DNA of 35,119 nucleotides from a virus, in UHGV virus genome UHGV-0196339; one strand, given 5' to 3'. Each line of letters opens with the position of its first letter. The first letter of the stretch is position 1. The translations under genes were made by a program, and so were the position numbers. This document shows, piece by piece, positions 478 through 35,119 of the stretch. The notes beneath the pieces were generated by a model. The model had not been told where the DNA came from. It was given only the letters and a program-made list of their open reading frames with translations, and ran no database searches.

Positions 478-479
478 AT

Positions 480-5100: not shown

Positions 5101-5105
5101 TTTAG

Positions 5106-5453: not shown

Positions 5454-5482
5454 ATCATTACCTCAATTTAGCTCAAGTAAGA

Positions 5483-6133: not shown

Positions 6134-6148
6134 GTCACCTCCCTACTA

Positions 6149-6835: not shown

Positions 6836-6851
6836 TCAGGAGGCTAGTGGG

Positions 6852-7643: not shown

Positions 7644-7734
7644 GAAACCAGAACATGCACACACAAAAAAACCGCTTGCCATGCCTCAATAGGTCAGGTT
7701 ACATTTCCGCTGCACCTCATAAAACGGGTGCCGG

Positions 7735-7920
7735 GATTCTCAACCCGACACAGAGCAAAGCGCATAACCGCGCAAGCGGTTTTTTTGTGCGTACTGTATT
7801 GCCACGTCTTTTTCGCGTCAGAATTATGGCGGGGCGTACGGGGCCGACTTTGGTCGGGCCGGATTCTTTGCTCTCCGGTGTTGAGAACCCTGTACGTCTC
7901 GCCACCCCGAGATTCTCAAC
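7735..7920. repeat. Three copies of GATTCTCAAC-like motif (two direct, one inverted) flanking a terminator
   Basis: GATTCTCAACCCGACACAGAGCAAAG at 7735-7760. Its imperfect reverse complement at 7866-7889. GATTCTCAAC again at 7911-7920. Confidence 0.4.
7766..7787 (+). terminator. Rho-independent terminator within the early region
   Basis: AACCGC-gcaa-GCGGTT followed by TTTTTT. Confidence 0.5.
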
Positions 7921-15450: not shown

Positions 15451-16497
15451 TCAGGATGTGGGCTGGGTGTCTAACAGTGCGTAAGGGTTAAAGCGGATCA
15501 CCTCTTCGCCAAGCCAGTCATTGATGTGCTTCATGGCCTCCATGACGGGCATCAGCTCGTTAATTGCGTAAACCCGTGCGGCCTTCTCCACATCACCAAA
15601 CGCACTTTTTTCGCCCGGCATCGCCCCCATCAGTTGCGGCGGAACGCGGTGCGCAGCCAGCACATCATCACGGGATGCCGCCTTAACATTCATGAACTCA
15701 TCCTTTGCGGTGATCTGCTGGAACGGCAAAATTTGCACCCCCTCTTTGCCCCCGTTGGGCGCATGGATGAGCACGTTTTTAAACGCACCACCTCCACGTG
15801 CCCCCTGTAACGTTTCTTTCAGGGAGTCCATGCTTTCGCGGTTTACCTGCGCTGCTCCGATGTAGATGATGCACCCGGCGTGGGATCCATTGTCGTAATA
15901 CAGTTTTCTGAACATGTCCGCCGAATGAGACAGGCTGGCCGAGAGTAATGCGCCAAGATATTCCGGCATGCCGTAAATTTCCTGGTTAATGTCCGGATTC
16001 ATCAGGTGGCACACTTTGCCAGGGCGAAACTGAAACGCGTCTTTGCCATCCTGCACATACCACCATGATTCAAGATCGCTTCCGCGTCGCATGTATTTCG
16101 CCAGTGCGTGCCGTAATTTAAGTGGTTCGCCGAGCATATTGCTTCGAAGCTCAAGGAATGCGTTACCGAACACAAACCAGTCCAGCGCCAGCGCCGAGAA
16201 ATCCTGCCGGGAAAGCAGCGGGTGCGGGATGTAGCAACCAAGTAATACATTGCGCTTAAAGTAAAGCGCAGACTGATGCCAGGACGTTTGCCGGGCAGCT
16301 CTTGCCAGACCGTACCAGTCCACCGGGGTTTCATACCACCGCCCGTTATCAGCACAGTACATATTGTCCAGCAGGTCATGCCCGGTCAGGCGATAAGGAC
16401 CATCAAATGTGAATGCACTGAGCGATGATTCTTTCCTGAGCGCATCAGCGAGATCAATGCGTGAACTCATGCGCACTTTTTTATTTTTTCTGCTCAT
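15451..16497 (-). CDS. Q: Portal protein (P2 gpQ-like)
   Basis: 348 aa, downstream of and ATGA-overlapping the terminase gene on the minus strand. Position and size as P2 Q. Possible alternative start at 16470. Confidence 0.85.
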   Translation of the reverse strand: MSRKNKKVRMSSRIDLADALRKESSLSAFTFDGPYRLTGHDLLDNMYCADNGRWYETPVDWYGLARAARQTSWHQSALYFKRNVLLGCYIPHPLLSRQDFSALALDWFVFGNAFLELRSNMLGEPLKLRHALAKYMRRGSDLESWWYVQDGKDAFQFRPGKVCHLMNPDINQEIYGMPEYLGALLSASLSHSADMFRKLYYDNGSHAGCIIYIGAAQVNRESMDSLKETLQGARGGGAFKNVLIHAPNGGKEGVQILPFQQITAKDEFMNVKAASRDDVLAAHRVPPQLMGAMPGEKSAFGDVEKAARVYAINELMPVMEAMKHINDWLGEEVIRFNPYALLDTQPTS

Positions 16498-18248
16498 CAG
16501 AACTCCATAACCGTGAAACGCTCGTTTTCTCCTTCGCCGCCAATCGGTTCGTTAATGACAGCAAGCATGGTTGCCCACGCAAGGTCGCCGTGGCTGATCC
16601 CCCTCGCGCGGTCCGTTTCGTAAGTGATAAAGCCGCCCGGTGTTTTCACCTTACGCACGGCGTTAAAGGCCGCGACCAGCTCGCGTTCGGCGCGATCGTA
16701 TTCCCACCGCCCGGCACGCATTATTTGCAGCATTTTCAGTACCAGCGACCGTTTTGATGACAGCGTGAAGGTGTACGGAATAGCAGCAGGGAAAAACCGT
16801 TTCACTATCTGATAAACAGCCTCCCCGTTCCCGCCCGTCACATCAATGCCGATGTGTTCCACGTTGTAGCGACACGTGAACTCTTCAATGACTCTGGCCT
16901 GTTCTTCAAACTCCAGCCCCTGAACGCGTCGCGTCTCCACCGTTCGAAAACGGCCACCAGGAACAGCCGGAGGAACCACCACGGACACAGCGCCGCTGTC
17001 GCCGTTGCCACTGCTGCCGTTTGCGTCATACCCAATCCATACCGGACGATTTCCCATCGGGCGGGGAGCAAAAGGTTTCCAGTCTTTCCAGTCGTCGTAT
17101 CCGTCAACACCGCAGCCAATCAGGATATTCAGGTTAAATGCCGATTCCCCTTCGCGGACAAACTCACACATATAGAGATTGAGGAACTCGTCTTCGGTGT
17201 TTTCATCACGAATTTCGTCGATATCGGTGTGTTTCCAGCCGTGATTAACCACATCTTCCAGCGTGACAATTTGCCGCCACGTCCGGTCAGGGCAGATAAG
17301 CCCGTTATGCAGCGTTTTCCAGTCCACAGAAAAACGCTGGCGTTTATGCGAGGCCTTTTTCTCGTTCCAGCGGTCGCCGTTCCAGTAGGCGTATGCCTCG
17401 TGCGTTTCGGTGGATGGCGTGGAGAAGTAGGTGCGCCGCAGTCCGCTGAGGGTTGCCATAGCGCCAGCCACCTTGCGCAGTTCAGCAAAGCGACTGACCC
17501 AGAAAAATTCATCAAAATAAAAATTGCCCGTATAGGACTGTGCCGACGCAGCAGAAGTGCCGAGAAAATGCAGCTCTGCGCCGTTGGAGAGGATGATTTT
17601 ATCGCCCCCTTTCAGCTCCACATCAACTTCAGCCGCGGCCTTCTGAATAATGCTTTTAAACTGGAACGCCTGACGACGCGACGCAGACAAAAAAATCTGG
17701 TTACGCTGGTAAGGTTGCGCCACATCGTCACGCAGCGCCATCAGCAGAGCTTCCTGTGCAAAATACCAGGTCGCCCCAATCTGTCGGGATTTCAGGATCA
17801 TCCTGTTACGTATCCCGGCTTCCCTGCAAAGGGTCAGGGAGTCAAACCAGCCCCGCTGATGCCACTCCAGCCTGCTGATGATTTTTTCCCGCAGTGCGGC
17901 AATCTGTTCCGGCGTGAAATGATTTTTGAGTTTTTTCGCCCGGCCTTTCTTTCCTGCGGTCATCACATCCGGCTGGCCATCATGCAGCTTTTTAAGCTGC
18001 CGGGTCAGCAGGTCTATTTCCTTAAAGTCACCGCCTGTTTTATTCTGTTTTTCAGTAAGCTGGATGAGGCGCGCATCGATGGACTGCGTAACACGCTGCA
18101 CGGGTGGTGTTTCATCCCACTGGTCGCGTTTTTTCCACGCATAAATCGTGTTCGGGTTTATTCCCATCAGACGTGATATTTCTGCGGGCGGATACCCCTG
18201 CCAGTAAAGTTGCCGCGCACGCTGGCGCACAAAAGCGTCCTGAATCAT
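16497..18248 (-). CDS. P: Terminase large (ATPase) subunit (P2 gpP-like)
   Basis: 583 aa, GGGGGAG SD. Divergent from the capsid operon as in P2. Confidence 0.88.
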   Translation of the reverse strand: MIQDAFVRQRARQLYWQGYPPAEISRLMGINPNTIYAWKKRDQWDETPPVQRVTQSIDARLIQLTEKQNKTGGDFKEIDLLTRQLKKLHDGQPDVMTAGKKGRAKKLKNHFTPEQIAALREKIISRLEWHQRGWFDSLTLCREAGIRNRMILKSRQIGATWYFAQEALLMALRDDVAQPYQRNQIFLSASRRQAFQFKSIIQKAAAEVDVELKGGDKIILSNGAELHFLGTSAASAQSYTGNFYFDEFFWVSRFAELRKVAGAMATLSGLRRTYFSTPSTETHEAYAYWNGDRWNEKKASHKRQRFSVDWKTLHNGLICPDRTWRQIVTLEDVVNHGWKHTDIDEIRDENTEDEFLNLYMCEFVREGESAFNLNILIGCGVDGYDDWKDWKPFAPRPMGNRPVWIGYDANGSSGNGDSGAVSVVVPPAVPGGRFRTVETRRVQGLEFEEQARVIEEFTCRYNVEHIGIDVTGGNGEAVYQIVKRFFPAAIPYTFTLSSKRSLVLKMLQIMRAGRWEYDRAERELVAAFNAVRKVKTPGGFITYETDRARGISHGDLAWATMLAVINEPIGGEGENERFTVMEF

Positions 18249-18403
18249 TGCTCCCCCTGAGTAATTACAGGAAGATTACCCGCGCGCGAAACCGTTCTCC
18301 TTAACCCCCTGTTCTGGCCGTTTTCTTACAACAAAAGCCCTTTGTATCAGCCTGTTACGCTTTGCCATCATGACTGAAGAACCAGTCAGAGGGGCAAAAA
18401 ACT
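18249..18403. promoter_or_regulatory. Divergent late promoter region (P-Q leftward, O-N-M-L rightward)
   Basis: 155-nt intergenic region between divergent late operons. Contains dyad ACAAA-agccc-TTTGT and CCCTTTGTATC, shared with the FI-D intergenic region. Confidence 0.4.
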
Positions 18404-19240
18404 ATGGCTAATGAAAAAAAGACATCCCGCAAAAAGTTTCGCGTGGCTGTCTCCGGATCAACTGTTGATGGCCGTGAAATCAGTCCGGTGCATCTGCGTG
18501 AAGCCGCCGAGAACTTCAACCCGGATGTTTACGCTGCCCGCGTGAACGTTGAGCACTATCTCTCGCCATGCCCGTCAAGCGAATTTTCCGCAATGGGCGA
18601 TGTCACCGCACTGAGTACGGAAGACATTACGGAAGGTCCGCTGGCCGGACGTACTGCGCTGTATGCAGAAATCGAACCGACCGAGCGCATGAAGCAGCTT
18701 GTCGCGGACGGCAAGAAAATCTATTCCAGTATCGAACTGCACCCGCAGTTCTCCGTTAACGGGCGCGCCTATCTGGTCGGGCTGGCGATGACCGACACCC
18801 CGGCAAGCCTGGGCACTGAGCGCCTGAAATTTACGGCACAGCAACGTCAGGCGGTAATGACGTTCAACAGTGTCCAGGGTGAAGCACCGCTTATCTCCGA
18901 AGCCATCGAGTCTGAAATCATCGAAATGGCAGAACAACGCCAGGAAGAAGGCACCCAGTGGTTTAACCGCGTAATGGGGATTATTGGTCGTGGCCGCAAA
19001 GCGGATGACGCCAGTTTCTCCCGTATTCAGGAAGCGCTGGAAGGCGTCGCAACGTCACAGGCCGACATTATCGACCGTTTTAATGTGCTGGAAACCCGCC
19101 ATCAGCAGGACAGCCAGAAAATCACGTCACTGACCACAGAGCTGACAGCATTGAAGGAAAAACTGCGCACGCAGGACGGCGATCCGCAGAACCGGTTCAC
19201 CGCAACAGGTGCAGCCTCCGACCAGCTGGCTGACTTCTGA
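18404..19240 (+). CDS. O: Capsid scaffolding protein (P2 gpO-like)
   Basis: 278 aa, AGAGGGG SD, position before the major capsid gene. Confidence 0.8.
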   Translation: MANEKKTSRKKFRVAVSGSTVDGREISPVHLREAAENFNPDVYAARVNVEHYLSPCPSSEFSAMGDVTALSTEDITEGPLAGRTALYAEIEPTERMKQLVADGKKIYSSIELHPQFSVNGRAYLVGLAMTDTPASLGTERLKFTAQQRQAVMTFNSVQGEAPLISEAIESEIIEMAEQRQEEGTQWFNRVMGIIGRGRKADDASFSRIQEALEGVATSQADIIDRFNVLETRHQQDSQKITSLTTELTALKEKLRTQDGDPQNRFTATGAASDQLADF

Positions 19241-19263
19241 TAAGACAAAGGAGCAAATTTTTT

Positions 19264-20316
19264 ATGAATCTGGTGATGTCAGATATTACCCGCAACAAGC
19301 TGGGTTGCTATATGGCGCAGCAGGCGTCGCTTAACAATATCCCGGTTTCTGCACTGGTATCGCGATTTACCGTGGAACCCGCGGTGCAGCAGCGTTTTGA
19401 AAACGCCTCAAAGGAAAGTACCGAATTTACGAAAAGAATTAACGTGATCGGCGTGACCGACCAGAAAGGCGAAAAAATCCTCCTGGATACCACAGGACCG
19501 ATTGCGCGCACGAATACCAGTTATGACGGCACAAAACGCCGTAACCCGAATAACGTGGTTGATCTGAAAAACCGCAAATACCAGTGCGAACAGGTGAACT
19601 ACGACACGTTTATTTCGTATCCGCAGCTTGATGCCTGGTCGGCACACCCTGATTTTCAGTCCCGCATCAGCGCACAGATTGCCCGACAGGTGGCACTTGA
19701 CCGCATCATGATCGGTTTCAACGGCACGTCTCACGCGGATGAGTCCAACTTCAGCACCAACAAGTTGCTTCAGGACGTTAACGTGGGGTGGCTGGAGCAC
19801 ATCAGAACCAACGCCAGCGAACGCGTTATGAATGACGTGACGCTGACCTCCCGTAACATGGACAACACCGTGGCGCACGCGGGTAAGTATGCGAACGCTG
19901 ATGCACTGGTACAGGACGCGCGCTCATCCCTGCTGGATGAATGGCACAAGGAAGCTGACGACCTCGTGGTGATTATGGGGCGCAACCTGTTTAACTCGCT
20001 GCGTCTGCCCGTGCTGAACAGCATCAGCGGCCAGAATCCCAATGCGGAATTACTTGCCGGGCAGCTCATTCTGTCATCGCGCACCATTGGCGGGCTGGGC
20101 GTGTTCCTTGCGCCGTTCTTCCCGGATTCAACGATGCTGATCACCTCGTTCAACAACCTGTCGATTTACTGGCAGAAAGGTTCAATGCGTCGTCTGATGA
20201 AAGACGAACCGGAATACAACCGCATCGCCACCTACCAGTCCATCAATGACGCTTATGTCGTTGAAGACTATGGCAAGTGCGCGATGGTCACTGGCCTGAA
20301 GTTCGCCGACAGCTAA
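19264..20316 (+). CDS. N: Major capsid protein (P2 gpN-like)
   Basis: 350 aa. FTVEP, GFNG, LQDVNVGWL, NLSIYW, YVVEDY blocks match P2 N. Confidence 0.9.
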   Translation: MNLVMSDITRNKLGCYMAQQASLNNIPVSALVSRFTVEPAVQQRFENASKESTEFTKRINVIGVTDQKGEKILLDTTGPIARTNTSYDGTKRRNPNNVVDLKNRKYQCEQVNYDTFISYPQLDAWSAHPDFQSRISAQIARQVALDRIMIGFNGTSHADESNFSTNKLLQDVNVGWLEHIRTNASERVMNDVTLTSRNMDNTVAHAGKYANADALVQDARSSLLDEWHKEADDLVVIMGRNLFNSLRLPVLNSISGQNPNAELLAGQLILSSRTIGGLGVFLAPFFPDSTMLITSFNNLSIYWQKGSMRRLMKDEPEYNRIATYQSINDAYVVEDYGKCAMVTGLKFADS

Positions 20317-20361
20317 TCAACTCACGGCGGGCATCATGCCCGCCTGTAACGGAGAGAAAAA

Positions 20362-21162
20362 ATGATTACTCCTGCACAGCAACACTGGCAGAACGTGATG
20401 GCACAGCGCGCAGGCCGGGCGAATGAAGGCGTGGACCACGCCGCGCGTACCGCGCATGAAGAGGTGCTGTATCGTCTGCGTCTGGCACAGGCCCGGCTTA
20501 AGGGCGTACAGGCCAGAAGCGCCAAAGCCGCCATCAAAAAAGAGTTGTTGCCGGACTTTTCCGGCTTGATTGAGGGAACACTGGAGGCTGACGGCGGGCA
20601 GCAGGATGAAGTGATTGCCACGCTGATGGTGTGGGCGATTGACTGCGGCGATCTTCCGCTGGCACTGCGTATTGGTGCATATGTGGTCCGTCACAACCTC
20701 ATCATGCCGGATAACTTTGGACGTACTGCTGCTACGGTACTGACCGAAGAAATCTGCAACCCGGTACTGACGCAGGCCGGGACGGATGCCGACGCGGATT
20801 TGTCCGCCTTTATCGAACCACTGGATACCCTCCGGGAGATTGTCACCGACCAGGACATGCCGGACGAAGTGCGCGCCAAATTATGCAAGGCGTGCGCCTT
20901 TGCCCGCCGTGGCCTGACCGATGCGGACAGCATGGCCTCATCACTGAAGCTGCTGCGCGAAGCGATGCACCTGAACCCGAACGCAGGTGTGAAACGCGAG
21001 ATTGCAACCCTTTCCCGCGCTCTGAAAAAAGCCGATTCCGCAGCCGCACCAGAAGATGCCAGCACACCGCAGGCGCAGGACGAAAGCAGCAAAAGTAAAA
21101 AGACAACGCGGAAGCCTGCAACACGAAAAACCACCGCGACGCAGAAGGCGAAGCGCGGTTAA
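20362..21162 (+). CDS. M: Terminase small (endonuclease) subunit (P2 gpM-like)
   Basis: 266 aa, GGAGAG SD, basic C-terminal tail, position as P2 M. Confidence 0.8.
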   Translation: MITPAQQHWQNVMAQRAGRANEGVDHAARTAHEEVLYRLRLAQARLKGVQARSAKAAIKKELLPDFSGLIEGTLEADGGQQDEVIATLMVWAIDCGDLPLALRIGAYVVRHNLIMPDNFGRTAATVLTEEICNPVLTQAGTDADADLSAFIEPLDTLREIVTDQDMPDEVRAKLCKACAFARRGLTDADSMASSLKLLREAMHLNPNAGVKREIATLSRALKKADSAAAPEDASTPQAQDESSKSKKTTRKPATRKTTATQKAKRG

Positions 21163-21263
21163 CGACTGACCCCGTCAGCGGGCGGCGTGCGCGGTGTTCC
21201 GGTTTGACTCCGTGACCGTTTACACCGCGCACCCACCGCCCGATTTTTTCAGGAGTGAACCCC

Positions 21264-21758
21264 ATGAGTATGGTTGCCAGAACCAACCCCGGACCCGCAG
21301 AGGACGACATCACCGATACCGATGATGGTGATACCCGTATTTCAGCGGGTGCATTCTGGCCGGATATTGTGCTGCGTGAGCTGCGTCTGGCGGTACGACT
21401 GCCGGGGCGCGTGACCACCTCCCGCCTGCTGCATACCGCCACCGGAGCTGTGGCACACGTTACCCGCGAGCTGGAAGCATGGCAGCAGGAACAGCAGGCG
21501 GCTGGCCATCAGACGCTGGCCGATGTTCCGGCACCCGTAATTAACGGAGAAAGCGTCAATCTCTGGCACTGGCGCAATGCTGTTTATACCGCCACGCGCG
21601 CCCTGATTCTGGAGCGTTATCGTGATGCAGACACAACGGACAAGGGCGACCGCCGGGCGGACGCACTGGATATACAGACATCGGATTTGTGGCGTGATGT
21701 GAGCTGGGCCATCTCTGACATTCTGTGCCGCCCACGAATCTTTGCGGATTTGTGCTGA
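21264..21758 (+). CDS. L: Head completion/stabilisation protein (P2 gpL-like)
   Basis: ATG at 21264 has an AGGAG SD 8 nt upstream (the ORF track starts at an upstream GTG, 21255). LADVPA...GESV, ERYRD...KGD and LWRDV blocks match P2 L. Confidence 0.8.
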   Translation: MSMVARTNPGPAEDDITDTDDGDTRISAGAFWPDIVLRELRLAVRLPGRVTTSRLLHTATGAVAHVTRELEAWQQEQQAAGHQTLADVPAPVINGESVNLWHWRNAVYTATRALILERYRDADTTDKGDRRADALDIQTSDLWRDVSWAISDILCRPRIFADLC

Positions 21759-26135: not shown

Positions 26136-26736
26136 TTCACTGTTACCACCATCAGCCAGCAGTTTCATGCGTTGTGTCGAAACTGCCAGCACACGCATCA
26201 CAGGCATTCCGGTAAACCTCAGCACACTGTGGTCGCCGGACACATGCCCGGTGCACCTGCTGCCTTATCTCGCCTGGGCGTTTTCCGTTGACCGCTGGGA
26301 TCGCAACTGGCCGGAAGAGACAAAGCGACAGGTGATTCGTGATGCATGGCTGATACACCGACATAAAGGCACTCTCAGCGCACTGCGAAAAGTTGTTGAG
26401 CCACTTGGTTACACGATCGAAATTAAGGAATGGTGGCAGCTCAATGAGGAACCAGGGACATTTCGCATTGTTGTCGGGGTACTTGATCAGGGCATCACCG
26501 ATGAAATGTACATGGAGATTGAACGCCTTATTGCAGATGCAAAACCTGTAAGTCGTCATCTGGCTGGTATGACAATCACTCTGGATACCAAAGGCAATAT
26601 TTTTACTGGTGCAGGGTGTTACCTCGGTGATGCTCTGACAGTGTATGCCTTCACCCCGGAGGAAATTACCGCCAGAGGAGAGTGCACCCCAGCCCAGTCC
26701 GTTCATTTAATTGATAATCTGGAAGTGAAAATATGA
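26128..26736 (+). CDS. I: Baseplate/tail protein I
   Basis: ATG at 26128 overlaps the J stop. MSNSLLPP..., LLPYLAWAFSVDRWD, HRHKGTL, IADAKPVSRHL match P2 I. The ORF track starts at 26062. Confidence 0.85.
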   Translation: MSNSLLPPSASSFMRCVETASTRITGIPVNLSTLWSPDTCPVHLLPYLAWAFSVDRWDRNWPEETKRQVIRDAWLIHRHKGTLSALRKVVEPLGYTIEIKEWWQLNEEPGTFRIVVGVLDQGITDEMYMEIERLIADAKPVSRHLAGMTITLDTKGNIFTGAGCYLGDALTVYAFTPEEITARGECTPAQSVHLIDNLEVKI

Positions 26737-27701
26737 CTGTAAAATACCATGCCATCCTGACAAACCAGGGCGCAACACGAATGGCGCATGCGGTCACGCC
26801 TGGCAACAAACTCAATCTGACGCAAATGGCTGTTGGTGATGCGAACGGAACATTGCCAACGCCAGATCCGGCGCAAACAAGCCTCATTAACCAGAAACGC
26901 ATTGCACCGCTGAATATGCTGAGCATTGACCCGAACAACCCCGGCCAGCTCATTGCGGAGCAAATCATCCCTGAAAACGAGGGAGGATTCTGGATCCGTG
27001 AAATTGGTCTTTTTGATGATGAAGGTGTACTCATTGCGGTGGCAAACTGCCCGGAAACATACAAACCCAAATTACAGGAAGGCAGTGGTCGCACCCAGAC
27101 TATCCGCATGATTCTTACAGTATCAAACACAGACGCTGTTACCTTAATCGTCGATCCTGCTATCGTGCTGGCCACACGGCAATACGTAGATAATCAGGTT
27201 ATCGAAATAAAAGAGCTTCTGAGTGAACATGAAGCAAAACCCGATCCTCATCCTCAGTATGTCAGCAAAACAAGTGAGGAAATGAAGCTTCTGGCTTCAG
27301 TTACAGAGATTGGTAAAAAACTGTTATCCGCCGGAGCTGTTGAAGATATCTGGTCACTACTCGGGCATGATTCAACTTTTGACGGAACACCGGATAACTG
27401 GTGTATTCGATTTAAGAATGGATTTATGGTTCAGGGCGGCACTTTACCTGAAACCGGACCCGCAAGAGTAATCACATACCGGGTCCCCTTCACAACAGCC
27501 GTGCTCTGGCATGATGCTCTGGGATATCAGGATTATTCAGGAGGTGGAGGTCTCGCATATTATAAAATGCACACAATGAAAGATATTGGACTAACCAGCG
27601 CAAAAATCGGGATGCTCGGTTATTTTCGTGCAGATACGACTCAGTTTATTCCGTCGCCGTCATCCATGACGGGCGGGAAATATATTTTTATGGGGTATTG
27701 A
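26733..27701 (+). CDS. H: Tail fibre protein H (short form with divergent C-terminal domain)
   Basis: 322 aa. N-terminal 150 aa (TQMAVGDANGTLPTPD...GGFWIREIGLFDDEGVLIAVAN...EGSGRTQTIRMIL) matches the conserved P2 H N-terminus. C-terminal half unrelated and short. Confidence 0.8.
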   Translation: MTVKYHAILTNQGATRMAHAVTPGNKLNLTQMAVGDANGTLPTPDPAQTSLINQKRIAPLNMLSIDPNNPGQLIAEQIIPENEGGFWIREIGLFDDEGVLIAVANCPETYKPKLQEGSGRTQTIRMILTVSNTDAVTLIVDPAIVLATRQYVDNQVIEIKELLSEHEAKPDPHPQYVSKTSEEMKLLASVTEIGKKLLSAGAVEDIWSLLGHDSTFDGTPDNWCIRFKNGFMVQGGTLPETGPARVITYRVPFTTAVLWHDALGYQDYSGGGGLAYYKMHTMKDIGLTSAKIGMLGYFRADTTQFIPSPSSMTGGKYIFMGY

Positions 27702-28139
27702 ATGAAATATACATACAGCCCGTCAGCCGGCGCATTTTTCCCAAATGAATTCAAAGAAAGCTATAAAGCGGCAGGAAGCTGGCCAACTGATGGTATTGAG
27801 GTGACAAAGGAAATTCGGGATAAGTTTTTAGCCCAGCCACCTGAAGGTAAGTGTCTCGGTGCAGACCAGAACGGGCACCCTGCATGGATTGACATACCCG
27901 AGCCAGATAAGGAAGAACAACAGGCCGAATTCATCAATGAACGAAACCTGCGAATATTGTTTGCTAATGACTATATTGCCAGTAAGCAATGGCCCGCCAG
28001 AGCTGTTCTTGGTCGGTTAAAGGGTAACGAATTATCTGATTACAATAAGTGGCTGGATCACCTTGAAGAACTTGAATCAATAACCCTCGACACTGTTCGT
28101 AATAATCACTGGCCGCAACCCCCTCTACCTTCGACATAA
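27702..28139 (+). CDS. G: Tail fibre assembly protein G
   Basis: 145 aa, immediately downstream of H. N-terminal MKYTYSPSAGAFFP... typical of Tfa proteins. Confidence 0.75.
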   Translation: MKYTYSPSAGAFFPNEFKESYKAAGSWPTDGIEVTKEIRDKFLAQPPEGKCLGADQNGHPAWIDIPEPDKEEQQAEFINERNLRILFANDYIASKQWPARAVLGRLKGNELSDYNKWLDHLEELESITLDTVRNNHWPQPPLPST

Positions 28140-28142
28140 TCT

Positions 28143-28170
28143 ATTGGCCGTGCCATTACGCACGGCCAAT
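28143..28170. terminator. Bidirectional hairpin terminator between convergent G and U
   Basis: Perfect 10-bp stem ATTGGCCGTG/CACGGCCAAT with an 8-nt loop in the 34-nt gap between convergent stops. Confidence 0.5.
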
Positions 28171-28173
28171 ATT

Positions 28174-28665
28174 TCAGACACGAGAAAAAACATTTCCCAC
28201 TGTTTCATATGCTGAGCTTGCTGTTTTCTGGAAATCACCCAGAAGATCTCCGAAGGAGGATGACTGCAGGCGCTCCCGCAAATCCTCATCACAGCGTTCA
28301 AGGGTCAGTGAAAACTCTATCTTTTTCGCCTTACCGTAGCGATCAAACTCGGAACGGGTCGTATTCGTTTCGGTCAGGACATACATGCCGTAAATCTGCC
28401 CGACGCCATCAATCAAAGGCCAGGGACGTCCTGTATACGCCTGCGTGGTCAGCAGCGACAGCGACACTTCGCCACCTGTAATTTCAGGATAAAGCACACC
28501 AGAAAGCACAATGCGATCATCGCCTGCCCCGATATACTGCCAGCTTGCTGAACGGTTAACGCGTTCATTTTTCACATGTCGCCAGCTTTTATTTTGCTGT
28601 AACTGCTGATGCGGCAATGTGCGCAGCTCAAAAACAAACATGCCGTAGATCATCATCATGTCCAT
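28174..28665 (-). CDS. U: Tail protein U
   Basis: 163 aa. MMMIYGMFVFELRTLPHQQLQQNKSWRH resembles the P2 U N-terminus. Last gene of the minus-strand tail operon. Confidence 0.8.
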   Translation of the reverse strand: MDMMMIYGMFVFELRTLPHQQLQQNKSWRHVKNERVNRSASWQYIGAGDDRIVLSGVLYPEITGGEVSLSLLTTQAYTGRPWPLIDGVGQIYGMYVLTETNTTRSEFDRYGKAKKIEFSLTLERCDEDLRERLQSSSFGDLLGDFQKTASSAYETVGNVFSRV

Positions 28666-28671
28666 GACTCC

Positions 28672-31515
28672 TCAATCTTTATCGTAAAAACTGCCACGCC
28701 CGGCACGGGCGCGCCGTTCTATTTCTGCCCTGACCATTTCACCGACCAGTTTCGCCAGTTCGCGGGGATTCTGCGTAACAACGTTATGCAGATGGACATG
28801 AATTTCACCACCAAATCCGGAGGCAACAGGCTCCTGGTTACGGGAAGTTGCAGGAACTGATGCCACTGGCGATCGTATGGCCTCCACCACCGGGCGGGAG
28901 TTGGCCGCAACAACAGGGACCAGCGCCGGAGGCAGCGGAGCCGGGACCACGGGTGTGATATTAATTGCGGGGGCAGGCTTACTGGCCTGCGCAATCTTCC
29001 GCTCCTGCCACTCCCCACGAACGGCAAGTGCGCGGGGCAGGTTCTTAAAGACAATATCACCGGGGCCAATACGTTTTTTCGTCTCATCAACCAGCTTACC
29101 TGTGTTATCAGCAATTTTGCTGAGTCTGCGTAGCGTACCGGTATTGCTGTCTGTGAGCGGTTTGTTGTCTTTGGGTTTATCACCTCCGGTGCCATTGCCA
29201 TTTTCCACAGGCTTCGGTGGATTGATTTTCGCCAGGTCCCCCTGAAGCAAGGCAACCTTGTCCTGAAGAATGGCCGCACGCTGTGCGTCTTCGATTTTCT
29301 TTCTCGCCCTTTCCGCTTCATCCGGAAGCACACCGAGCTTTTCAAGTATCCACGCCAGCGTATTCAGCAACATTTTTGCAGGTGTCAGAACAAGCTGTAA
29401 CGTACCGCCAAGAACGTTACCGAATATCTCGCCAGCACTGGTACATTTATCCAGCGTTTCCTTGCTGGACTCCATCGGTGACAGCAGCGATTTAAACCAG
29501 TTAAAGAGCTGAATAATCCCATCGCGCACGACATCAAAAACAGGACCAAACCGTTCAAAGGTTTCGCGCAACGGAGCCAGCCGTTCCATAATCCCACTGA
29601 ACACCCCGGCATAAAACGCCTTGATGGGTTCCCAGTATTTCCAGATGAGAACCGCCGCAGCCACAAACGCGGCAACAATCAATCCGACCGGACTGAACAG
29701 CGCCCCGATAGCGCCACCCAGCAACGAGATGGAACCTGTTACCATTCCCCATAGTGCTGGCAGCACCCTGACGACATTCATTGATCCGGTCAGGAGAGAA
29801 AAACCAAGACGTAACGTGGCCAGTTTCCCGTGAAGCACGCCAATAACCAGCGACAACGAGCCAATCGTTGCAGTCATTGCCAGCAACGCACCGCCTGCTA
29901 TCAGTAGCTGGCGCGTCAGTGCCGGATGGGCCTGCGCCAGCGCCGTCACCCTTGATACCACCCGCGTGAGCCACTGCGTGACAGAACGCAGCGGGCCGTC
30001 AATCAGATCTGCAATGCGGATGCGCAACCCTTCCCATGCACTGCCGAGTGATTTCAGATCGCCATCAAGGTTGTTGGCCATAACCTTTGCCGTGCGTTCA
30101 GCCTCACCGCGTGCGCCTTCAAGTTCTTTTCTCAGTTTGGGTAAGGAACCGTCACCTGCCGCATCAACGAGGGCCATAAACGATGTGAAAGCCTCTTCCC
30201 CGGCGATGTCCTTAAAGAAGGATACCCGGTCAACTTCCCCGTATTTGCGGGTGGCTTTATAAAGGTCGGCCAGCACATCCTCCATCGGACGCATTTTGCC
30301 GTTCGCGTCAGAAACTGCCACACCAAGCTCTTTCAGCGCCTCTGCTGCTGCCTTTGGCGGTGATGCCAGACGAGCCAGGCTGGCACGCATTGCCGTCCCG
30401 GCATCACTCCCTCTGATACCCATATTCGCCAGCACGCCCGCCATCGCTGCGGCCTGCTCCAGCGATATTCCCAGCTTACCCGCCACCGGACCTGCATATT
30501 TCATGGTTTCGCCCAGTGCGCGAAGGTCAGTGTTGGTACGGGTAAACGCTGCGGTGAGTGTGTCACCAACCCGGTCCATCTGGTCAGCAGAAAGGCCGAA
30601 CTGCGTCAGGATATTTGAGCCAATATCCGCCGTCTCGCCGAGATCCATACCGCCAGCCGTTGCCATGCTCAACACGCCGGGAAGCGCAGCCTGAATGGCC
30701 TGCGGTGTGAAGCCAGCCATTGCAAGAAATGCCTGTCCACTGGCGGCATCGCCTGCGGTGAACTGCGTTTCAGAGCCAAGTTTTAACGCCTGCTCACGCA
30801 GCGCCTTAAACTGTGGGCTGTTCTGGTCGATTCGCGTCAGTGCCTGAACGCGGGACATCTCTTTCCCGAACCCGATCGCAGGCTGCAAAAAACGCCCGGC
30901 AGCATAGCCGCCAGCCGCTGCCGCACCAATTGCCAGCGCACCACCTGTTTTCAGTTTTCCAGCAGTTTCCTGCGCGCGCGAATACCGCTCACGCGCCCGC
31001 GTTACACGCGCAAGCGTCTGCCGTTCGCGTTCAAGCTGGTTGTTGTACTGTTCGGTGCGTCTGATGGCCTGCTGGATGGTGTTATCGCTGCCTGTCAGGG
31101 AAATGCCGTGGCGTTTCAGCTCTCCGCCAAGTTCCCGCATTTTCTGAATTTCCCGTGTGCGCGATTCATTCAGGCGTTCAAGCCGGGTGCTTAACTGCTG
31201 CATCAGCTTTTGTTGTTTTTCGCTGAGCACTGTACCCGTGCGTTGTAACTGATTAAGGGCGTTAAGCTGGCGTCGTGCTTTCACGATGCCAGCATCCGCT
31301 TTACTGACAGCGTCGCGGGCGCGCTCAAATGATCGCGCCTGACGCTCGAGATTTTTGATCGCCCCCTGCGTTCGCTGGATGGCGTCACCAAACTGCCCCA
31401 TCAGGCGGCGTGCGTTTTCGGCAGGTCGGGTCAGCCTGTCAACGGCGCTGAAAGCGACCCGGATATCAAGAGTCTTCATTGTCTGCATTCCCGCTGCGAA
31501 GTGCCGCCCGCTCAC
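28672..31515 (-). CDS. T: Tail tape measure protein T
   Basis: 947 aa, coiled-coil N-terminus, central Gly/Ala-rich hydrophobic region. Position between E/E' and U. Confidence 0.85.
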   Translation of the reverse strand: MSGRHFAAGMQTMKTLDIRVAFSAVDRLTRPAENARRLMGQFGDAIQRTQGAIKNLERQARSFERARDAVSKADAGIVKARRQLNALNQLQRTGTVLSEKQQKLMQQLSTRLERLNESRTREIQKMRELGGELKRHGISLTGSDNTIQQAIRRTEQYNNQLERERQTLARVTRARERYSRAQETAGKLKTGGALAIGAAAAGGYAAGRFLQPAIGFGKEMSRVQALTRIDQNSPQFKALREQALKLGSETQFTAGDAASGQAFLAMAGFTPQAIQAALPGVLSMATAGGMDLGETADIGSNILTQFGLSADQMDRVGDTLTAAFTRTNTDLRALGETMKYAGPVAGKLGISLEQAAAMAGVLANMGIRGSDAGTAMRASLARLASPPKAAAEALKELGVAVSDANGKMRPMEDVLADLYKATRKYGEVDRVSFFKDIAGEEAFTSFMALVDAAGDGSLPKLRKELEGARGEAERTAKVMANNLDGDLKSLGSAWEGLRIRIADLIDGPLRSVTQWLTRVVSRVTALAQAHPALTRQLLIAGGALLAMTATIGSLSLVIGVLHGKLATLRLGFSLLTGSMNVVRVLPALWGMVTGSISLLGGAIGALFSPVGLIVAAFVAAAVLIWKYWEPIKAFYAGVFSGIMERLAPLRETFERFGPVFDVVRDGIIQLFNWFKSLLSPMESSKETLDKCTSAGEIFGNVLGGTLQLVLTPAKMLLNTLAWILEKLGVLPDEAERARKKIEDAQRAAILQDKVALLQGDLAKINPPKPVENGNGTGGDKPKDNKPLTDSNTGTLRRLSKIADNTGKLVDETKKRIGPGDIVFKNLPRALAVRGEWQERKIAQASKPAPAINITPVVPAPLPPALVPVVAANSRPVVEAIRSPVASVPATSRNQEPVASGFGGEIHVHLHNVVTQNPRELAKLVGEMVRAEIERRARAGRGSFYDKD

Positions 31516-32004
31516 GCCAGCTAACCACTTCGCCGGGCGTCATCATGAAGATTTCGGCGGGCGACCAGTTAAAAATGGCGGCAATATCCGCCACCAGATC
31601 TTCGATGCGCTCAAAGCACACCAGGGTGATTACGCTGCCGTCTCCTGCACGCTCTTCGCGCCAGAGTCTGGCTCGCTCATAAAATTTACAGCCACAGCGC
31701 ACAACTGAATAAAATCGCGTGACGACATTTTTTTAATCATCACTTCATCCAGTCGTGGCGAGGTCACGCGAGGCAACAGCGTGAACATGGTATCCGCTTT
31801 CAGGTTCAACACATCAGAAAGCGACAGACCACGCAGAGATCCAGCCTGCTCAATAGCCCCGGTGATTTCCACATACGTGATTTTTTCGCCACCGCGCTCA
31901 ATTGGTCGGGCCAGTTTTACGCCACGTTCGACAGCCATATCCTCACCTGCCGTCACATCATCCGCCACGGCGTTATTCTGGGTTTCAGTATTGATGTTTT
32001 TCAT
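31466..32004 (-). CDS. Tail assembly chaperone E+E' (-1 programmed frameshift product)
   Basis: The -1 frame is open from about 31702 to 31466 and overlaps the E 3' end. Slippery heptamer A_AAT_TTT on the minus strand (plus-strand 31681-31687). The E' frame ends inside T, as in P2. Confidence 0.5.
31630..32004 (-). CDS. E: Tail assembly chaperone E
   Basis: 124 aa, AAGGAG SD, between the tube and tape-measure genes. Confidence 0.75.
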   Translation of the reverse strand: MKNINTETQNNAVADDVTAGEDMAVERGVKLARPIERGGEKITYVEITGAIEQAGSLRGLSLSDVLNLKADTMFTLLPRVTSPRLDEVMIKKMSSRDFIQLCAVAVNFMSEPDSGAKSVQETAA

Positions 32005-32059
32005 CAGTTGTCTCCTTTTCAGTCAGAGGCGACGCACCGCGCCGCCTGCATATTACTTA

Positions 32060-32572
32060 TCAGCCAAGCCCAAGCGCGGAACGGATGCGATCGGGCACAA
32101 TGTCCTTGCCGTCCTTCCGGTAGATGTGGTTCAGCAGGTCGATTTCCCACAGCGGACGATCGTTAACGCTCAGCTTGTAGTAGGTGTTTTTGACAGCGTA
32201 AGTGTGTGATGTGGCTTCGCCCTGTTTGGCTTCCCCCATATCAATTTCCGTCACACGCCCGCGCATCTCGATTTCATACAGATCACTTTCTGCATCGGTG
32301 TAGTATTCACCCGCAAAACGCAGCAACGTGCCGTCAATCGTGCCGCCATATTTAAGGAACAGCTCACGGACTGCCCCCCCCATGACAAAACTCGCATCAA
32401 GCGCAGAATCATCAAGACCGAGGTCGATACTCACCGCCCCCATCATGCCACCGCCACGATAGCTTTCAGTTTTGCGCGTCAGTTTAGGTGGAGTGACGGA
32501 CGTCACCTTACCCACTTCGTTTTCACCATTCACAAACAGCGTAAAAAAGCGAAGATGTTTTGGTACAGCCAT
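32060..32572 (-). CDS. FII: Tail tube protein FII
   Basis: 170 aa, ATGA overlap with FI, position and size as P2 FII. Confidence 0.85.
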   Translation of the reverse strand: MAVPKHLRFFTLFVNGENEVGKVTSVTPPKLTRKTESYRGGGMMGAVSIDLGLDDSALDASFVMGGAVRELFLKYGGTIDGTLLRFAGEYYTDAESDLYEIEMRGRVTEIDMGEAKQGEATSHTYAVKNTYYKLSVNDRPLWEIDLLNHIYRKDGKDIVPDRIRSALGLG

Positions 32573-33756
32573 CAGACACCTCCCAACACCGCAAATGCGG
32601 GATCAAAGTATTCATCAGTAAACGTCTGGTAAAGCTCCATATCTTCCAGCGGAGGAACGGGCGTATATTTGTAGCGAATACGCACACGCCCCTGTCGCAA
32701 TTCCGTGGTACTGTTATCCACAATGTCATACCAGCACGACGCCCCAATCAGTTTCCCGGCAGTAACCAGCGAATCCAGTTTTGCCCTGATAGCACTGATA
32801 ACATCCTTCACGTTCGCGGGCGTCAGTGGACTGTCGATGGTTTCAAACTGCGCTTCCGCAATTGAATCAGCCAGCACCTGTGCGGTTCGGGTATACACCT
32901 CAAAGATGTAGGCGTTCGTTTCCGGTGTGCGGTTGCCCCAGAAACGGAACCCGTTGCGACGAATAATGGTCGTGATTTCTTTGTTGTTAAGGCTGTTGGC
33001 ATCGCTGTCTTCGGCCTGCAACGACCAGAACACATGCCGGGACATCCCCAGCACATTTTTAACCGGAACGTTGGACAGTGATTTGTGCCATCCCTGCTCA
33101 TGGTCAATGTACGCACGAAGGCCGCACGCATAGGCAGACGCGGGGAACGTTTCGTTTTTGCCACTTTTCGGGTTGTAGGCGATGAAGTCAGGCCATAAGA
33201 GCATCACCTCACGTTCGTTGAATTTCTGGCGGTAGGTAATCGCCTCAGCCATCGTGTTACAGCCGTGACATGAGGCATACACAAACGCGCGCAGTTTACC
33301 TGCAATCACGCACAGGGATTTTGTTACAGCCTCCGTGTCCAGCTCCGGCGCGGCCAGAATACGCGGACGGTATCCGATGCTTTCATCCTGCTCTGCAACA
33401 AGCAGCGCATACATCCCCGTATAGCTGCCGTCAGATTCAGAACCACCGATAACCAGTTGATCCTGCGTCTTTCCGTCTTCTTCTTTGTGTTCAGCCACGC
33501 GAACGACGATCACCTTTGTGCTCACCTGGTCTGCGATGGCCTTAAGCGCACGATAAAGCGTCCCCGTTGTCCCGCATTTCCCCAGCACGTCATTGACGCG
33601 GGTCAGCAGTGTGGGCTTGTTCAGCGGGAACAGCTTCGCGTCCGCATCATCCGCCGTTGCCACGATACCGATAACGCTGGAATCAACATCGTTAATCGCT
33701 GTTACCAGGTCGGTATTTTCCGTAACACGGGCACCATGAAAACGAGTTTCACTCAT
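32572..33756 (-). CDS. FI: Contractile tail sheath protein FI
   Basis: 394 aa. ADDADA..FPLNKP, GTLYRALKAIADQ, KLRAF, WPDF, EQGWHKSLSNV, IRRNGFRFWGNRT, YTPVPPLE blocks match P2 FI. Confidence 0.9.
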   Translation of the reverse strand: MSETRFHGARVTENTDLVTAINDVDSSVIGIVATADDADAKLFPLNKPTLLTRVNDVLGKCGTTGTLYRALKAIADQVSTKVIVVRVAEHKEEDGKTQDQLVIGGSESDGSYTGMYALLVAEQDESIGYRPRILAAPELDTEAVTKSLCVIAGKLRAFVYASCHGCNTMAEAITYRQKFNEREVMLLWPDFIAYNPKSGKNETFPASAYACGLRAYIDHEQGWHKSLSNVPVKNVLGMSRHVFWSLQAEDSDANSLNNKEITTIIRRNGFRFWGNRTPETNAYIFEVYTRTAQVLADSIAEAQFETIDSPLTPANVKDVISAIRAKLDSLVTAGKLIGASCWYDIVDNSTTELRQGRVRIRYKYTPVPPLEDMELYQTFTDEYFDPAFAVLGGV

Positions 33757-33913
33757 AGCTTCAGCCCCTTGTATCCGTTAAATGATTCGGCAACAATCAT
33801 CACCCACCACGCGCGTAATCTCACCCCTGCGCCGTTCTCCCGCCACGGCGACAACAAAAAGCAGTAACCCCCTCCGCACGCACATGCGACCATGCCGCAC
33901 AGGGAGGGAGCAG
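33757..33913. promoter_or_regulatory. Divergent late promoter region between FI (minus) and D (plus)
   Basis: 157-nt intergenic region between divergent starts. Shares CCCTTGTATC, ACAACAAAA and AACCCCCT with the P-O region. Confidence 0.4.
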
Positions 33914-35023
33914 ATGACCGACACCACCATGCAATTGCTCAGTCAGGGCACGGACCCCGTGAAAATGCCGGATTTTGATATTCTCACGGAGGGGAAAACG
34001 CTGCCCAGCGTGGCAGAGCGCCTGATGAACCTGTCACTGACCGACAACCGGGGATTTGAAGCAGACCAGCTCACCATCACGCTGGATGATGCAGATGGTC
34101 AGTTGCAGCTACCGCCACGGGGCGCGCGCCTGACGGTTCTCATTGGCTGGAAAGGAGAACCGCTGACAGAAAAAGGTACTTATATTGTTGATGAAATCGC
34201 TCATGAAGGACCGCCGGACAGGCTGACTGTTTCAGCCAGAAGCGCAGATTTCCGGGATGAATTTAACGTTAAACGTGAGGTGTCCTGGCATGATGTGACC
34301 GTTGAGCGTGTGGTATCCGCCATCGCTCACCGGTACGGCCTGAAACCGCAAATCAGCGAAATGCTGATGGATATCGAAATCGACCACGCTGACCAGACTG
34401 AAGAAAGCGACATGTCCTTCCTTACGCGCATGGCGGAAATGCTGGGCGCAATCACCACAGTAAAAAGCGGTAATCTGTTATTCATCATGCCAGGCGGTGG
34501 CGTGAACGCACAGGGCCAGCCGTTGCCATCGTTCGCCATCACTCGCAGTAGTGGCGATCGCCATCAGTTCCGCATTGCTGACCGCGAAGCGTATACGGGA
34601 GTACGCGCTTACTGGCTTGATCTTAATTACGGGAAAAAGAAAAAAGTCAGCGTGAAACGCCGCAAACCGAAAAAAGAGAAAAGCAGCAGCCGTGAAGGTG
34701 ACTATATGGAAGGTTCGGAAGGCAACGTGTTTGTGTTACGCAAAACTTATCAGAACGAACAGGCAGCAAGACGCGCAGCGGCGGCAAAGTGGCAGCAGCT
34801 ACAACGCAGAGCCGCATCATTCTCCATCACACTGGCACGTGGACGCGCAGAACTCTACCCCGAAATGCATGGCACGGTGACAGGCTTCAAAAGTGACATC
34901 GACAATCAGGACTGGATTATTGCAAAAGCCGAGCACACCATTGATAACAGCGGCTTTACCACGCAGCTTGAGCTTGAGGCAAAAATCCCAGAGTGGATAG
35001 CAGAAACAGAGCGAGCAACATAG
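33914..35023 (+). CDS. D: Tail protein D (late control gene D family)
   Basis: ATG at 33914 preceded by AGGGAGGGAG. About 369 aa with the gpD-family layout. The ORF track extends the frame upstream to 33782. Confidence 0.85.
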   Translation: MTDTTMQLLSQGTDPVKMPDFDILTEGKTLPSVAERLMNLSLTDNRGFEADQLTITLDDADGQLQLPPRGARLTVLIGWKGEPLTEKGTYIVDEIAHEGPPDRLTVSARSADFRDEFNVKREVSWHDVTVERVVSAIAHRYGLKPQISEMLMDIEIDHADQTEESDMSFLTRMAEMLGAITTVKSGNLLFIMPGGGVNAQGQPLPSFAITRSSGDRHQFRIADREAYTGVRAYWLDLNYGKKKKVSVKRRKPKKEKSSSREGDYMEGSEGNVFVLRKTYQNEQAARRAAAAKWQQLQRRAASFSITLARGRAELYPEMHGTVTGFKSDIDNQDWIIAKAEHTIDNSGFTTQLELEAKIPEWIAETERAT

Positions 35024-35119
35024 ATACATTAGTTCATGCATAAGCTGGCCAGCTTACTACAAAAAGCTAGAATAAATTTGGCAATCCGCACAAATTAACA
35101 GGAGGCAGCTCAGGCCTCC

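Follow-up and report, generated by a model that had tools for sequence, protein, structure and literature searches.

Among the described phages, P88 and other Xuanwuvirus members (P88_4B11, 520873, 503458, 500465-2, PhiR44_2 and Chuche), together with Citrobacter phage phiSM, are closest to the locus described here, sharing 94–95% nucleotide identity with positions 28240–35024 of the window, which is the whole stretch of 35,119 nucleotides that was analysed (UHGV virus genome UHGV-0196339). These phages have U, T, E', E, FII and FI in minus orientation and D in plus orientation, with an FI–D gap of ~157 nt, as in the window, and both P88 and phiSM form plaques (PMC5285337, PMC6456863). The same layout can be read from the record annotations of P88, P88_4B11 and Salmonella phage SEN5 (Senquatrovirus); FI–U is inverted and D divergent in SEN4 and SEN5. 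SEN5 resembles the window in that its G and U face each other directly, without an invertase; in P88-type phages the G–U interval is occupied by a DNA invertase and an alternative fibre cassette, and in the window by nothing more than the 34-nt spacer with its hairpin. The inverted layout itself is already known from the records of these named phages and is not new; the inversion goes unmentioned in the P88 and SEN4/5 papers, the phiSM paper does not use the words 'inversion' or 'inverted', and no explicit description of the FI–U inversion was found in the literature searched, although it may have been discussed elsewhere. The F operon of P2 (FI-FII-E/E'-T-U-D under promoter PF) encodes the same seven products, with E' in the -1 frame, but forms one rightward operon after G and Z/fun in which D directly follows U, whereas in the window FI–U is turned round, start signals of its own precede D, and no cargo lies between G and the tail block.

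The window belongs to the P2 family, Peduoviridae, and within it is P88-like (Xuanwuvirus-like). The head and packaging set of the family is present at 15451–21758, comprising Q portal, P large terminase, O scaffold, N capsid, M small terminase and L head completion, with matches to the Pfam families Phage_portal, Terminase_6N/6C/5, Phage_GPO, Phage_cap_P2, Phage_term_smal and Phage_GPL, and Q–P is divergent from O in the P2-type manner. The P2-type tail and baseplate genes S, V, W, J, I, H, G, FI, FII, E/E', T, U and D were identified by PHROG and Pfam matches, and a gpA-type replication initiator (Phage_GPA, E 2e-129) and an Ogr/Delta zinc-finger activator are also encoded. The gene order is not that of Peduovirus, with FI-FII-E-T-U-D collinear and rightward after G; it is that of Xuanwuvirus, with an inverted FI–U block and a ~157-nt FI–D gap. 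The ICTV places a phage in a genus at ~70% or more whole-genome nucleotide similarity to a member. Against P88 alone, 68% of the window aligns, which gives ~64% intergenomic similarity with core genes 94–97% identical, the lower overall value being due to the cargo, the immunity/integrase region and the fibre cassette. Compared with P88, the window has a short divergent H/G cassette and a variant U C-terminus, differs in its integrase and immunity region, and contains Thoeris in the D–ogr interval and IetAS in the A–Q interval. Its sequence is circularly permuted, position 35119 being followed by position 1, and the E. coli H3 chromosome runs through this join with 100% contiguity. The features from H to the end of the window are as follows.

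26733–27701, plus strand: H, tail fibre gene (PHROG 327/6202, E 1e-111, residues 1–179; Pfam Phage_tail_fib on an identical contig)
27702–28139, plus strand: G, tail fibre assembly gene (PHROG 188, E 4.5e-39; Pfam Caudo_TAP)
28142–28171 (30 nt): G–U hairpin, perfect 12-bp stem and 6-nt loop
28174–28665, minus strand: U, tail gene (Pfam Phage_P2_GpU, E 5e-39; PHROG 76)
28672–31479, minus strand: T, tape measure gene (PHROG 28, E 4e-214; Pfam PhageMin_Tail)
31466–31702, minus strand: E' ORF, in the -1 frame relative to E (Pfam Phage_P2_GpE, E 2e-12)
31630–32004, minus strand: E, tail assembly chaperone gene (PHROG 103, E 2e-36)
31681–31687, minus strand: candidate slippery heptamer A_AAT_TTT in the E frame, read from the sequence
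32060–32572, minus strand: FII, tail tube gene (Pfam Phage_tube, E 7e-46)
32572–33756, minus strand: FI, tail sheath gene (PHROG 23, E 6e-128; Pfam sheath domains, Phage_sheath_1)
33757–33913: FI–D intergenic gap, 157 nt, divergent
33914–35023, plus strand: D, baseplate hub and late control gene (PHROG 52, E 7e-164; Pfam Phage_GPD)
35101–35119: hairpin between D and the convergent Thoeris genes

The strands are those assigned in an earlier sequence-only reading of this DNA, with U, T, E/E', FII and FI on minus and H, G and D on plus, and together with the synteny comparison they bear out its description of an FI–U block inverted relative to P2 and of D as a separate divergent unit, 157 nt from FI; that reading had also seen no cargo between G and U, and no gene is indeed present there, G being the last gene of the plus-strand late operon. 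H is a short gene of 322 codons, conserved in its N-terminal domain and divergent, with low GC, at the C-terminal end, and a distant blastn search of the H/G region against phages gave no close relative of the fibre cassette. The U start is placed at 28659 in gene calls on identical contigs; the final ~22 codons of U are unlike those of E. coli P88-type U, and homology to P88 and E. coli genomes runs from 28240. T has 935 aa from the ATG at 31479, the same call as on an identical contig, and the longest ORF opens with GTG at 31515. Both hallmarks of a P2-type E/E' pair are present, namely a GpE-domain ORF overlapping E in the -1 frame and the candidate heptamer, 54 nt upstream of the E stop, and an E+E' product would come from a -1 frameshift; E itself gives a Pfam Phage_TAC_7 match under the cut-off of that family, and a GpE-family ORF is annotated at the E' position in P88 and in RefSeq. 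FI and D are 45% and 51% identical to their P2 counterparts. The start of D is placed at 33914 because a longer ORF from 33782 is not conserved among relatives, and a ribosome-binding site, GGGAGGGA, lies just upstream. A search of the FI–U/D region against Rfam returned no match.

Both junctions of the inverted block were checked in independent assemblies. Of 5426 complete E. coli genomes, 1358 carry the FI–D junction uninterrupted (query coverage at least 80%, identity 95–99% in nearly all matching records), and the G–U junction, with the same 34-nt spacer, occurs in 19 contigs of independent samples (Logan, NCBI, ENA) located through the exact G protein, two of them identical to the window over 6–8 kb and three at 97–98% identity without indels. 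An assembly artefact at one or both junctions could appeal to exact-match scans of IMG/VR and JGI metagenomes, which gave no match to the hairpin, and to the window's G–U junction being covered by no complete E. coli genome; it is refuted by the independent assemblies, is further opposed by the ORFs flanking both junctions, all of which are intact, and was rejected with practically no credence left to it. The G–U spacer separates two convergent genes, and its hairpin (dG -22.5 kcal/mol, z -6.43, with none of 200 shuffles equally stable) is probably a two-way terminator at which the O-to-G operon on the plus strand and the FI–U operon on the minus strand would both end. The U-tracts of the hairpin are weak, and it was not among the output of a generic sigma-70/terminator scan.

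The inverted layout was found in ~130 fetched Enterobacterales loci with D at least 60% identical to that of the window, and in IMG/VR and genome relatives with D ~70% identical, as in Klebsiella Reginaelenavirus records (for the unannotated Reginaelenavirus record Kp4871-3 the layout is presumed from these relatives). Senquatrovirus- and Reginaelenavirus-type relatives differ from the window in having D only 61–70% identical and distinct nucleotide sequences. Across ~160 loci compared by tblastn the split is clean, all loci with D at 60% or more being inverted and all loci with D at 46–53% collinear. In a neighbour-joining tree of D, which carries no support values, the inverted loci, 49 once redundancy is removed, form a single clade that contains no collinear tip, while P2-type relatives and those of Pseudomonas and Burkholderia, the latter two serving as outgroups, are collinear. 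In the 5426 complete E. coli genomes the inverted layout is present in 1358 and the P2-type layout in 1571. Judged from these loci, the inverted layout is the fixed, ancestral state of a very common P2-like prophage clade. The orientation singled out by the sequence-only reading as a departure from P2, on the understanding that it was not the rule in some P2-like subgroup, is the norm in one (Xuanwuvirus, Senquatrovirus and related loci); the inversion is real but ordinary, since it is the fixed layout of the common P88/Xuanwuvirus-type clade, and the departure from P2 synteny is a lineage marker, not an anomaly, because inverted loci are nearly as common as P2-type ones.

The uniform orientation of the ~130 clade loci, none of them collinear, also bears on whether FI–U is a programmed invertible segment flipped by a serine invertase, the window showing one of two states. 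Programmed segments of this kind include the G segment of Mu and the C segment of P1, with invertases of the Gin/Cin/Hin type. P88-type relatives do possess a DNA invertase and an invertible fibre cassette adjoining U, but the window has no invertase gene, an inverted-repeat search found no arms flanking the FI–U block, and the promoter and ribosome-binding features are fixed for the present orientation. Of the marks of Gin/Cin/Hin-type systems, the window shows neither an adjacent invertase nor flanking crossover sites, and none of the ~130 clade loci has the other orientation, so that a programmed switch is extremely unlikely. Another possibility is that FI–U is a foreign module from a different contractile-tail lineage, inserted in the opposite orientation. 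P2-like phages are mosaic, and the neighbouring H/G cassette has clearly been swapped in, with its low GC and with P88 homology stopping at 28240. FI identity nevertheless tracks D identity over the loci (FI/D 97/97, ~75/76, ~60/64 and ~49/50%), FI, FII, U and D diverge in parallel over all of them, FI and D of the window are about equally far from P2, and the PF site keeps a P2-like distance from FI, all of which makes an imported block very unlikely.

The FI–D gap is conserved in length, at 145–163 nt in nearly all clade gaps, and contains a dyad of the Ogr type. The features concerned are the following.

33834–33855: Ogr-type activator dyad GTTCT-N12-ACAAC, with the core TCT-N12-ACA at 33836–33853
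33796–33801, minus strand: predicted PF -10 hexamer GATGAT, predicted start near 33789
33885–33893, plus strand: predicted extended -10 TGcGACCAT of the D promoter, predicted start near 33900
18311–18332: Ogr-type dyad GTTCT-N12-ACAAC in the P–O divergent gap
2339–2599, plus strand: ogr homologue, presumed dyad-binding late activator (Pfam Ogr_Delta, E 5e-14)

Ogr-dependent late promoters of P2 contain a partial dyad, TGT-N12-ACA, centred ~55 bp upstream of the start (PMC3931495; P2 record features). Counting against an Ogr site, one half-site in the window and many relatives reads TCT, not TGT; the P2 PF and PP/PO sites each have one mismatch too, CCA for ACA. The exact TGT-N12-ACA search gave no match in the late gaps, and allowing one mismatch gave 151 matches, which is not above chance; the signal emerged only when positions were compared across relatives and the motif was extended. 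GTTST-N12-ACAAC then has only two perfect matches in the window, one in the FI–D gap, centred at 33844.5, 88.5 nt from the ATG of FI and 69.5 nt from that of D, and one in the P–O gap, whose centre is 73.5 nt from the start codon of P and 82.5 nt from that of O. Of 105 distinct gaps in the inverted clade, 103 contain T[G/C]T-N12-ACA at 78.5–88.5 nt from the FI ATG and mostly 68.5–71.5 nt from the D ATG, with variable sequence in between and within N12. In collinear relatives the site lies ~77–84 nt from the FI start codon as estimated by tblastn alignment, and at P2 PF its centre is 57.5 nt away from the transcription start, which has been mapped, and 82.5 nt from the ATG of FI, so that a dyad ~83–88 nt upstream of FI is common to P2 and the window. 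The ogr product is 42% identical to P2 Ogr and contains the C-X2-C...C-X4-C motif. Of 86 inverted loci informative on its position, 70 have ogr no more than 150 nt beyond the downstream end of D, and in P2 too it follows D.

Candidate -10 elements occur on both sides of the dyad. In 28 non-redundant gaps (<80% identity, which reduces inherited likeness but does not remove it), nAnnnT hexamers have their midpoint precisely 46 nt from that of the dyad in 89% on the FI side and 75% on the D side, and at any other offset in at most 25%; on the D side a TG..A..CAT consensus is conserved. The gap shares with P2 late promoters a dyad at a PF-like distance, -10 elements at the matching distance and no good -35, and a generic scan of the gap found no sigma-70 consensus promoter. 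One central dyad-symmetric site, bound by Ogr, would drive both FI–U and D from the 157-nt gap, lying ~55 bp upstream of each predicted start, and D would most likely have gained its divergent late promoter from PF's own activator site, because the gap mirrors the shared PP/PO activator site of P2. There a single dyad-symmetric site stands in the middle of a gap of ~155–173 nt with starts ~55 nt to each side, and the P2 record annotates one activator site for pO and pP, 56 and 55 nt from their starts; the P–O gap of the window has the same GTTCT-N12-ACAAC site as its FI–D gap, with the difference from PP/PO that the FI–D site would serve FI and D, from predicted starts, instead of P and O. The earlier placement of both promoters in the 157-nt gap is supported by this conserved site and its flanking -10 elements; the rearranged late-promoter architecture proposed with it is nothing exotic, as it mirrors PP/PO. 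No bidirectional FI/D late promoter was found in the literature searched.

A start near 33900 would leave D a leader of only ~14 nt, beginning at the Shine-Dalgarno sequence, which counts against an Ogr-dependent start there and favours a dyad that serves PF alone, with D transcribed from an Ogr-independent or otherwise regulated promoter in the right half of the gap; the extended -10 on the D side (TGn plus hexamer) can also work without a -35 or an activator. Such a separate D promoter seems unlikely, in that the two -10 elements share the same exact 46-nt offset from the dyad, the distance from dyad to D ATG is kept at ~69–71 nt over genera across variable intervening sequence, PP/PO of P2 is a precedent for a common site, and the gap has no sigma-70 consensus promoter. 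The shared site remains the preferred account of the gap.

The sequence-only reading had further held that the layout is not a simple inversion of the P2 operon, but one inversion yields exactly this map if its breakpoints lie upstream of the PF site and between U and D. On this account, a single event in an ancestor shared by a large enterobacterial clade would have turned round FI-FII-E/E'-T-U together with the PF activator site, breaking the DNA between that site and G at one end and between U and D at the other. The PF promoter would have moved along with FI–U, the single F operon of P2 would have been split into two divergent late units, FI–U and D (usually D-ogr), and the arrangement would have been fixed since. 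One ancient inversion of FI–U together with PF is suggested because the inverted loci form one clade and the P2-type, Pseudomonas and Burkholderia relatives are collinear. Taken as a whole, a circularly permuted P88-like window with a single ancestral inversion and both late units served from one Ogr-type site is the best explanation and a probable one.

Why the inversion was kept is a more tentative matter. Rewiring of late control, with one Ogr site, two short divergent units, feedback on ogr and new cargo hotspots, is a doubtful though possible reason. If it holds, D-ogr would lie only ~70 nt from the late promoter, giving tight positive feedback on ogr; the dosage of the hub would be uncoupled from that of sheath and tube; and the new convergent operon ends, at G/U and downstream of D, would be hotspots for the insertion of cargo such as the invertase and fibre cassette, an acetyltransferase or Thoeris. 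A single Ogr site driving FI and D divergently is a testable prediction. The G/U and D/ogr junctions of the clade are places to seek prophage cargo, for example defence systems, and FI–U orientation offers a simple synteny character separating two major enterobacterial Peduoviridae clades. P2 provides the textbook map, yet about one quarter of complete E. coli genomes carry an FI–U-inverted P2-like prophage.

The window represents a phage genome of the P2 family, in which Q and P on the minus strand diverge from O-N-M-L on the plus strand, with lysis genes, R/S and then V-W-J-I-H-G following on the plus strand. The tail block FI-FII-E/E'-T-U is inverted relative to P2, and its genes and strands had been described accurately by the sequence-only reading, including the 34-nt hairpin spacer between G and U and the 157-nt gap between FI and D:

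27702-28139, plus: G, followed by the 34-nt spacer
28142-28171: perfect hairpin in the G-U spacer, 12-bp stem, 6-nt loop, dG -22.5 kcal/mol, z -6.4
28174-28665, minus: U
28672-31479, minus: T
31466-31702, minus: -1 frame ORF of E, containing the Pfam GpE domain
31687-31681, minus: candidate slippery heptamer A_AAT_TTT of E
31630-32004, minus: E
32060-32572, minus: FII
32572-33756, minus: FI
33914-35023, plus: D, separated from FI by the 157-nt gap

The D start, which is preceded by a ribosome-binding site, GGGAGGGA, was placed at 33914 because the in-frame ATG-initiated extension (33782-33913) is not kept in relatives. Annotation of 33782-33913 is inconsistent in P88 and RefSeq E. coli, appearing as a short FI-D 'hypothetical protein' or as differing D starts.

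The inverted FI-U block is the norm in P88-like and related Peduoviridae, a large named P2-like lineage, and many annotated genomes in public databases already contain it. Positions 28240-35024 display 94-95% identity to Escherichia phage P88, other Xuanwuvirus and Citrobacter phage phiSM, of which P88 and phiSM form plaques (PMC5285337, PMC6456863), and in the annotations of P88 and P88_4B11 the strands and the FI-D gap are as in the window. Salmonella phage SEN5 (Senquatrovirus), whose D is 61% identical, shares the window's layout and likewise has G and U converging directly and no invertase. Klebsiella phage records classed under Reginaelenavirus, compared by D identity, have a D ~70% identical to the window's, and IMG/VR and genome loci at ~70% D identity were all inverted. 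No discussion of the inversion was found in a literature search, although one key review fell outside its reach.

The distribution was assessed in 160 loci around D homologues fetched from GTDB species genomes and IMG/VR, in which FI, FII, E, T and U were placed by tblastn. FI-U was inverted in every fetched locus whose D reached 60% identity to that of the window, and every P2-type locus (D 46-53% identical) was collinear. Hosts of the inverted loci include E. coli, Salmonella, Citrobacter, Klebsiella, Enterobacter, Kosakonia, Serratia, Symbiopectobacterium, Pectobacterium, Brenneria, Erwinia, Pantoea, Edwardsiella, Xenorhabdus, Photorhabdus, Providencia, Morganella, Yersinia, Hafnia and Rouxiella. 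When D was placed in a neighbour-joining tree, the 49 inverted loci left after redundancy removal grouped as one clade with zero collinear tips inside, sister to the enterobacterial P2-type clade, and the outgroups from Pseudomonas (Citexvirus) and Burkholderia (Tigrvirus) were collinear.

The inversion is almost as common in E. coli as the P2-type U-D junction (1571 of 5426 complete genomes), since a 901-nt query spanning FI-gap-D was matched at ≥80% coverage in 1358 of these genomes, with 95-99% identity in nearly all matching records. The window's own G-U junction was not found in complete E. coli genomes; 19 contigs, assembled independently in Logan, NCBI and ENA, do encode the exact G protein, followed by a convergent U across a spacer of the same 34 nt. 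Two of them are identical to the window across 6-8 kb, and three further ones are 97-98% identical without indels. An assembly error at either junction, a concern of the earlier reading, is excluded by this recurrence.

The simplest reading is one ancient in-place inversion, a shared derived character of the clade. The claim that the map is not a simple inversion was unsupported, as a single inversion with its left breakpoint upstream of the activator site of PF, the P2 late promoter of FI, would yield it; PF would be carried along with FI, and its dyad-symmetric site could then serve D too. A programmed invertible segment is excluded, because the window lacks an invertase, the block lacks flanking repeats and a single orientation was observed among ~130 loci, and replacement by a foreign module is unlikely, because FI identity declines in step with D identity from locus to locus (tblastn).

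The sequence-only reading also placed the FI promoter in the FI-D gap, and promoters in this gap are supported by a conserved Ogr-type dyad with -10-like hexamers on both sides:

2339-2599: Ogr homologue
33801-33796, minus: predicted FI-side -10 hexamer GATGAT, predicted start near 33789
33836-33853: dyad TCT-N12-ACA, 88.5 nt from the FI ATG and 69.5 nt from the D ATG
33885-33893, plus: predicted D-side TGcGACCAT, predicted start near 33900

In the P2 record, which marks the activator site and transcription start of PF and the FI ATG, the core TGT-N12-CCA has its centre 57.5 nt away from the start and 82.5 nt away from the ATG, and collinear relatives have TGT-N12-ACA ~77-84 nt upstream of FI, with start codons estimated from tblastn alignments. 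Among 105 distinct FI-D gaps of the clade, nearly all 145-163 nt long, 103 have T[G/C]T-N12-ACA at 78.5-88.5 nt from the FI ATG, in most 68.5-71.5 nt from the D ATG, with a freely variable N12 spacer. The extended motif GTTST-N12-ACAAC is matched perfectly at only two places in the whole 35 kb: at this dyad and midway through the P-O gap. When 28 representative gaps (<80% identical) were anchored on the dyad, the centres of nAnnnT hexamers peaked at an offset of exactly 46 nt to either side: 89% of gaps have one there on the FI side and 75% on the D side, and no other offset exceeds 25%. The window's gap has no sigma-70 consensus promoter, as expected of activator-dependent promoters, and we infer from these motifs Ogr binding, both start sites and Ogr dependence. 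An Ogr-independent promoter for D was considered, because the D side bears an extended -10 and the predicted D leader is just ~14 nt, and is judged improbable. P2 itself offers a precedent: its record lists one shared 'activator binding site; pO, pP promoters', from which the P start lies 56 nt to one side and the O start 55 nt to the other. The FI-D gap therefore holds a further copy of an architecture that P2-like phages already use. The putative bidirectional FI/D late promoter is the one modestly new element. A one-mismatch dyad, GTTATCGTGATGCAGACACAAC, lies at 21616-21637 within L, ahead of the X/lysis genes, and is a possible internal late promoter. Upstream of V, the location of PV in P2, the window showed no dyad.

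That G and U have no cargo between them holds for the window, but among relatives this junction is occupied by an invertase and alternative fibre cassette in P88 and by a serine acetyltransferase in E. coli H3. Of 86 informative inverted loci, 70 have ogr ≤150 nt after D, in agreement with the single terminator that ends the ogr transcript and F operon in the P2 record, and 0.4-4 kb insertions separate them in the remaining 16, which suggests that the D-ogr interval is a cargo hotspot. The window is circularly permuted, and the join of its end to its start (including 35101-35119) is 100% contiguous in E. coli H3, on whose chromosome the order is D, ThsB/ThsA, ogr, hok and attR adjoining tRNA-Leu. 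A type I Thoeris defence system (10-1946, minus strand) occupies the D-ogr interval of the window:

10-477, minus: ThsB (TIR)
480-1946, minus: ThsA (SIR2 + STALD/SLOG)

A putative hok/gef-type toxin gene, placed by alignment to the P88 annotation, lies just 3' of ogr at ~2791-2931, a position shared by P88, P88_4B11 and E. coli H3.

A divergent low-GC cassette (~27100-28240) comprises the C-terminal part of H (322 aa, vs ~765 aa in P88), the whole of G, the hairpin and the final ~22 U codons; complete E. coli genomes and the GenBank phage collection yielded no close match to it. Homology to P88 and E. coli begins at 28240, and the recombination joint falls inside the 3' end of U.

Between the replication gene A and the portal gene Q, at the position of old/tin in P2, the low-GC (39-43%) segment 11587-14957 (plus) carries the two-gene defence system IetAS, with IetA (AAA ATPase; PADLOC E 1e-77) and IetS (S8 subtilase; PADLOC E 1e-52). 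The immunity/integration module (3053-6933) is swapped relative to P88, because its three genes below lack nucleotide homology to P88, and 7712-7909 in the early region, with both RNAs above the Rfam gathering score, is a predicted P1/P7-type antisense immunity module within a P2-like phage:

4099-5100: integrase
5483-6133: 216-aa protein with no Pfam match
6149-6553: HTH protein
7712-7786, plus: isrK, 61.9 bits
7822-7909, plus: C4 antisense RNA, 77.6 bits
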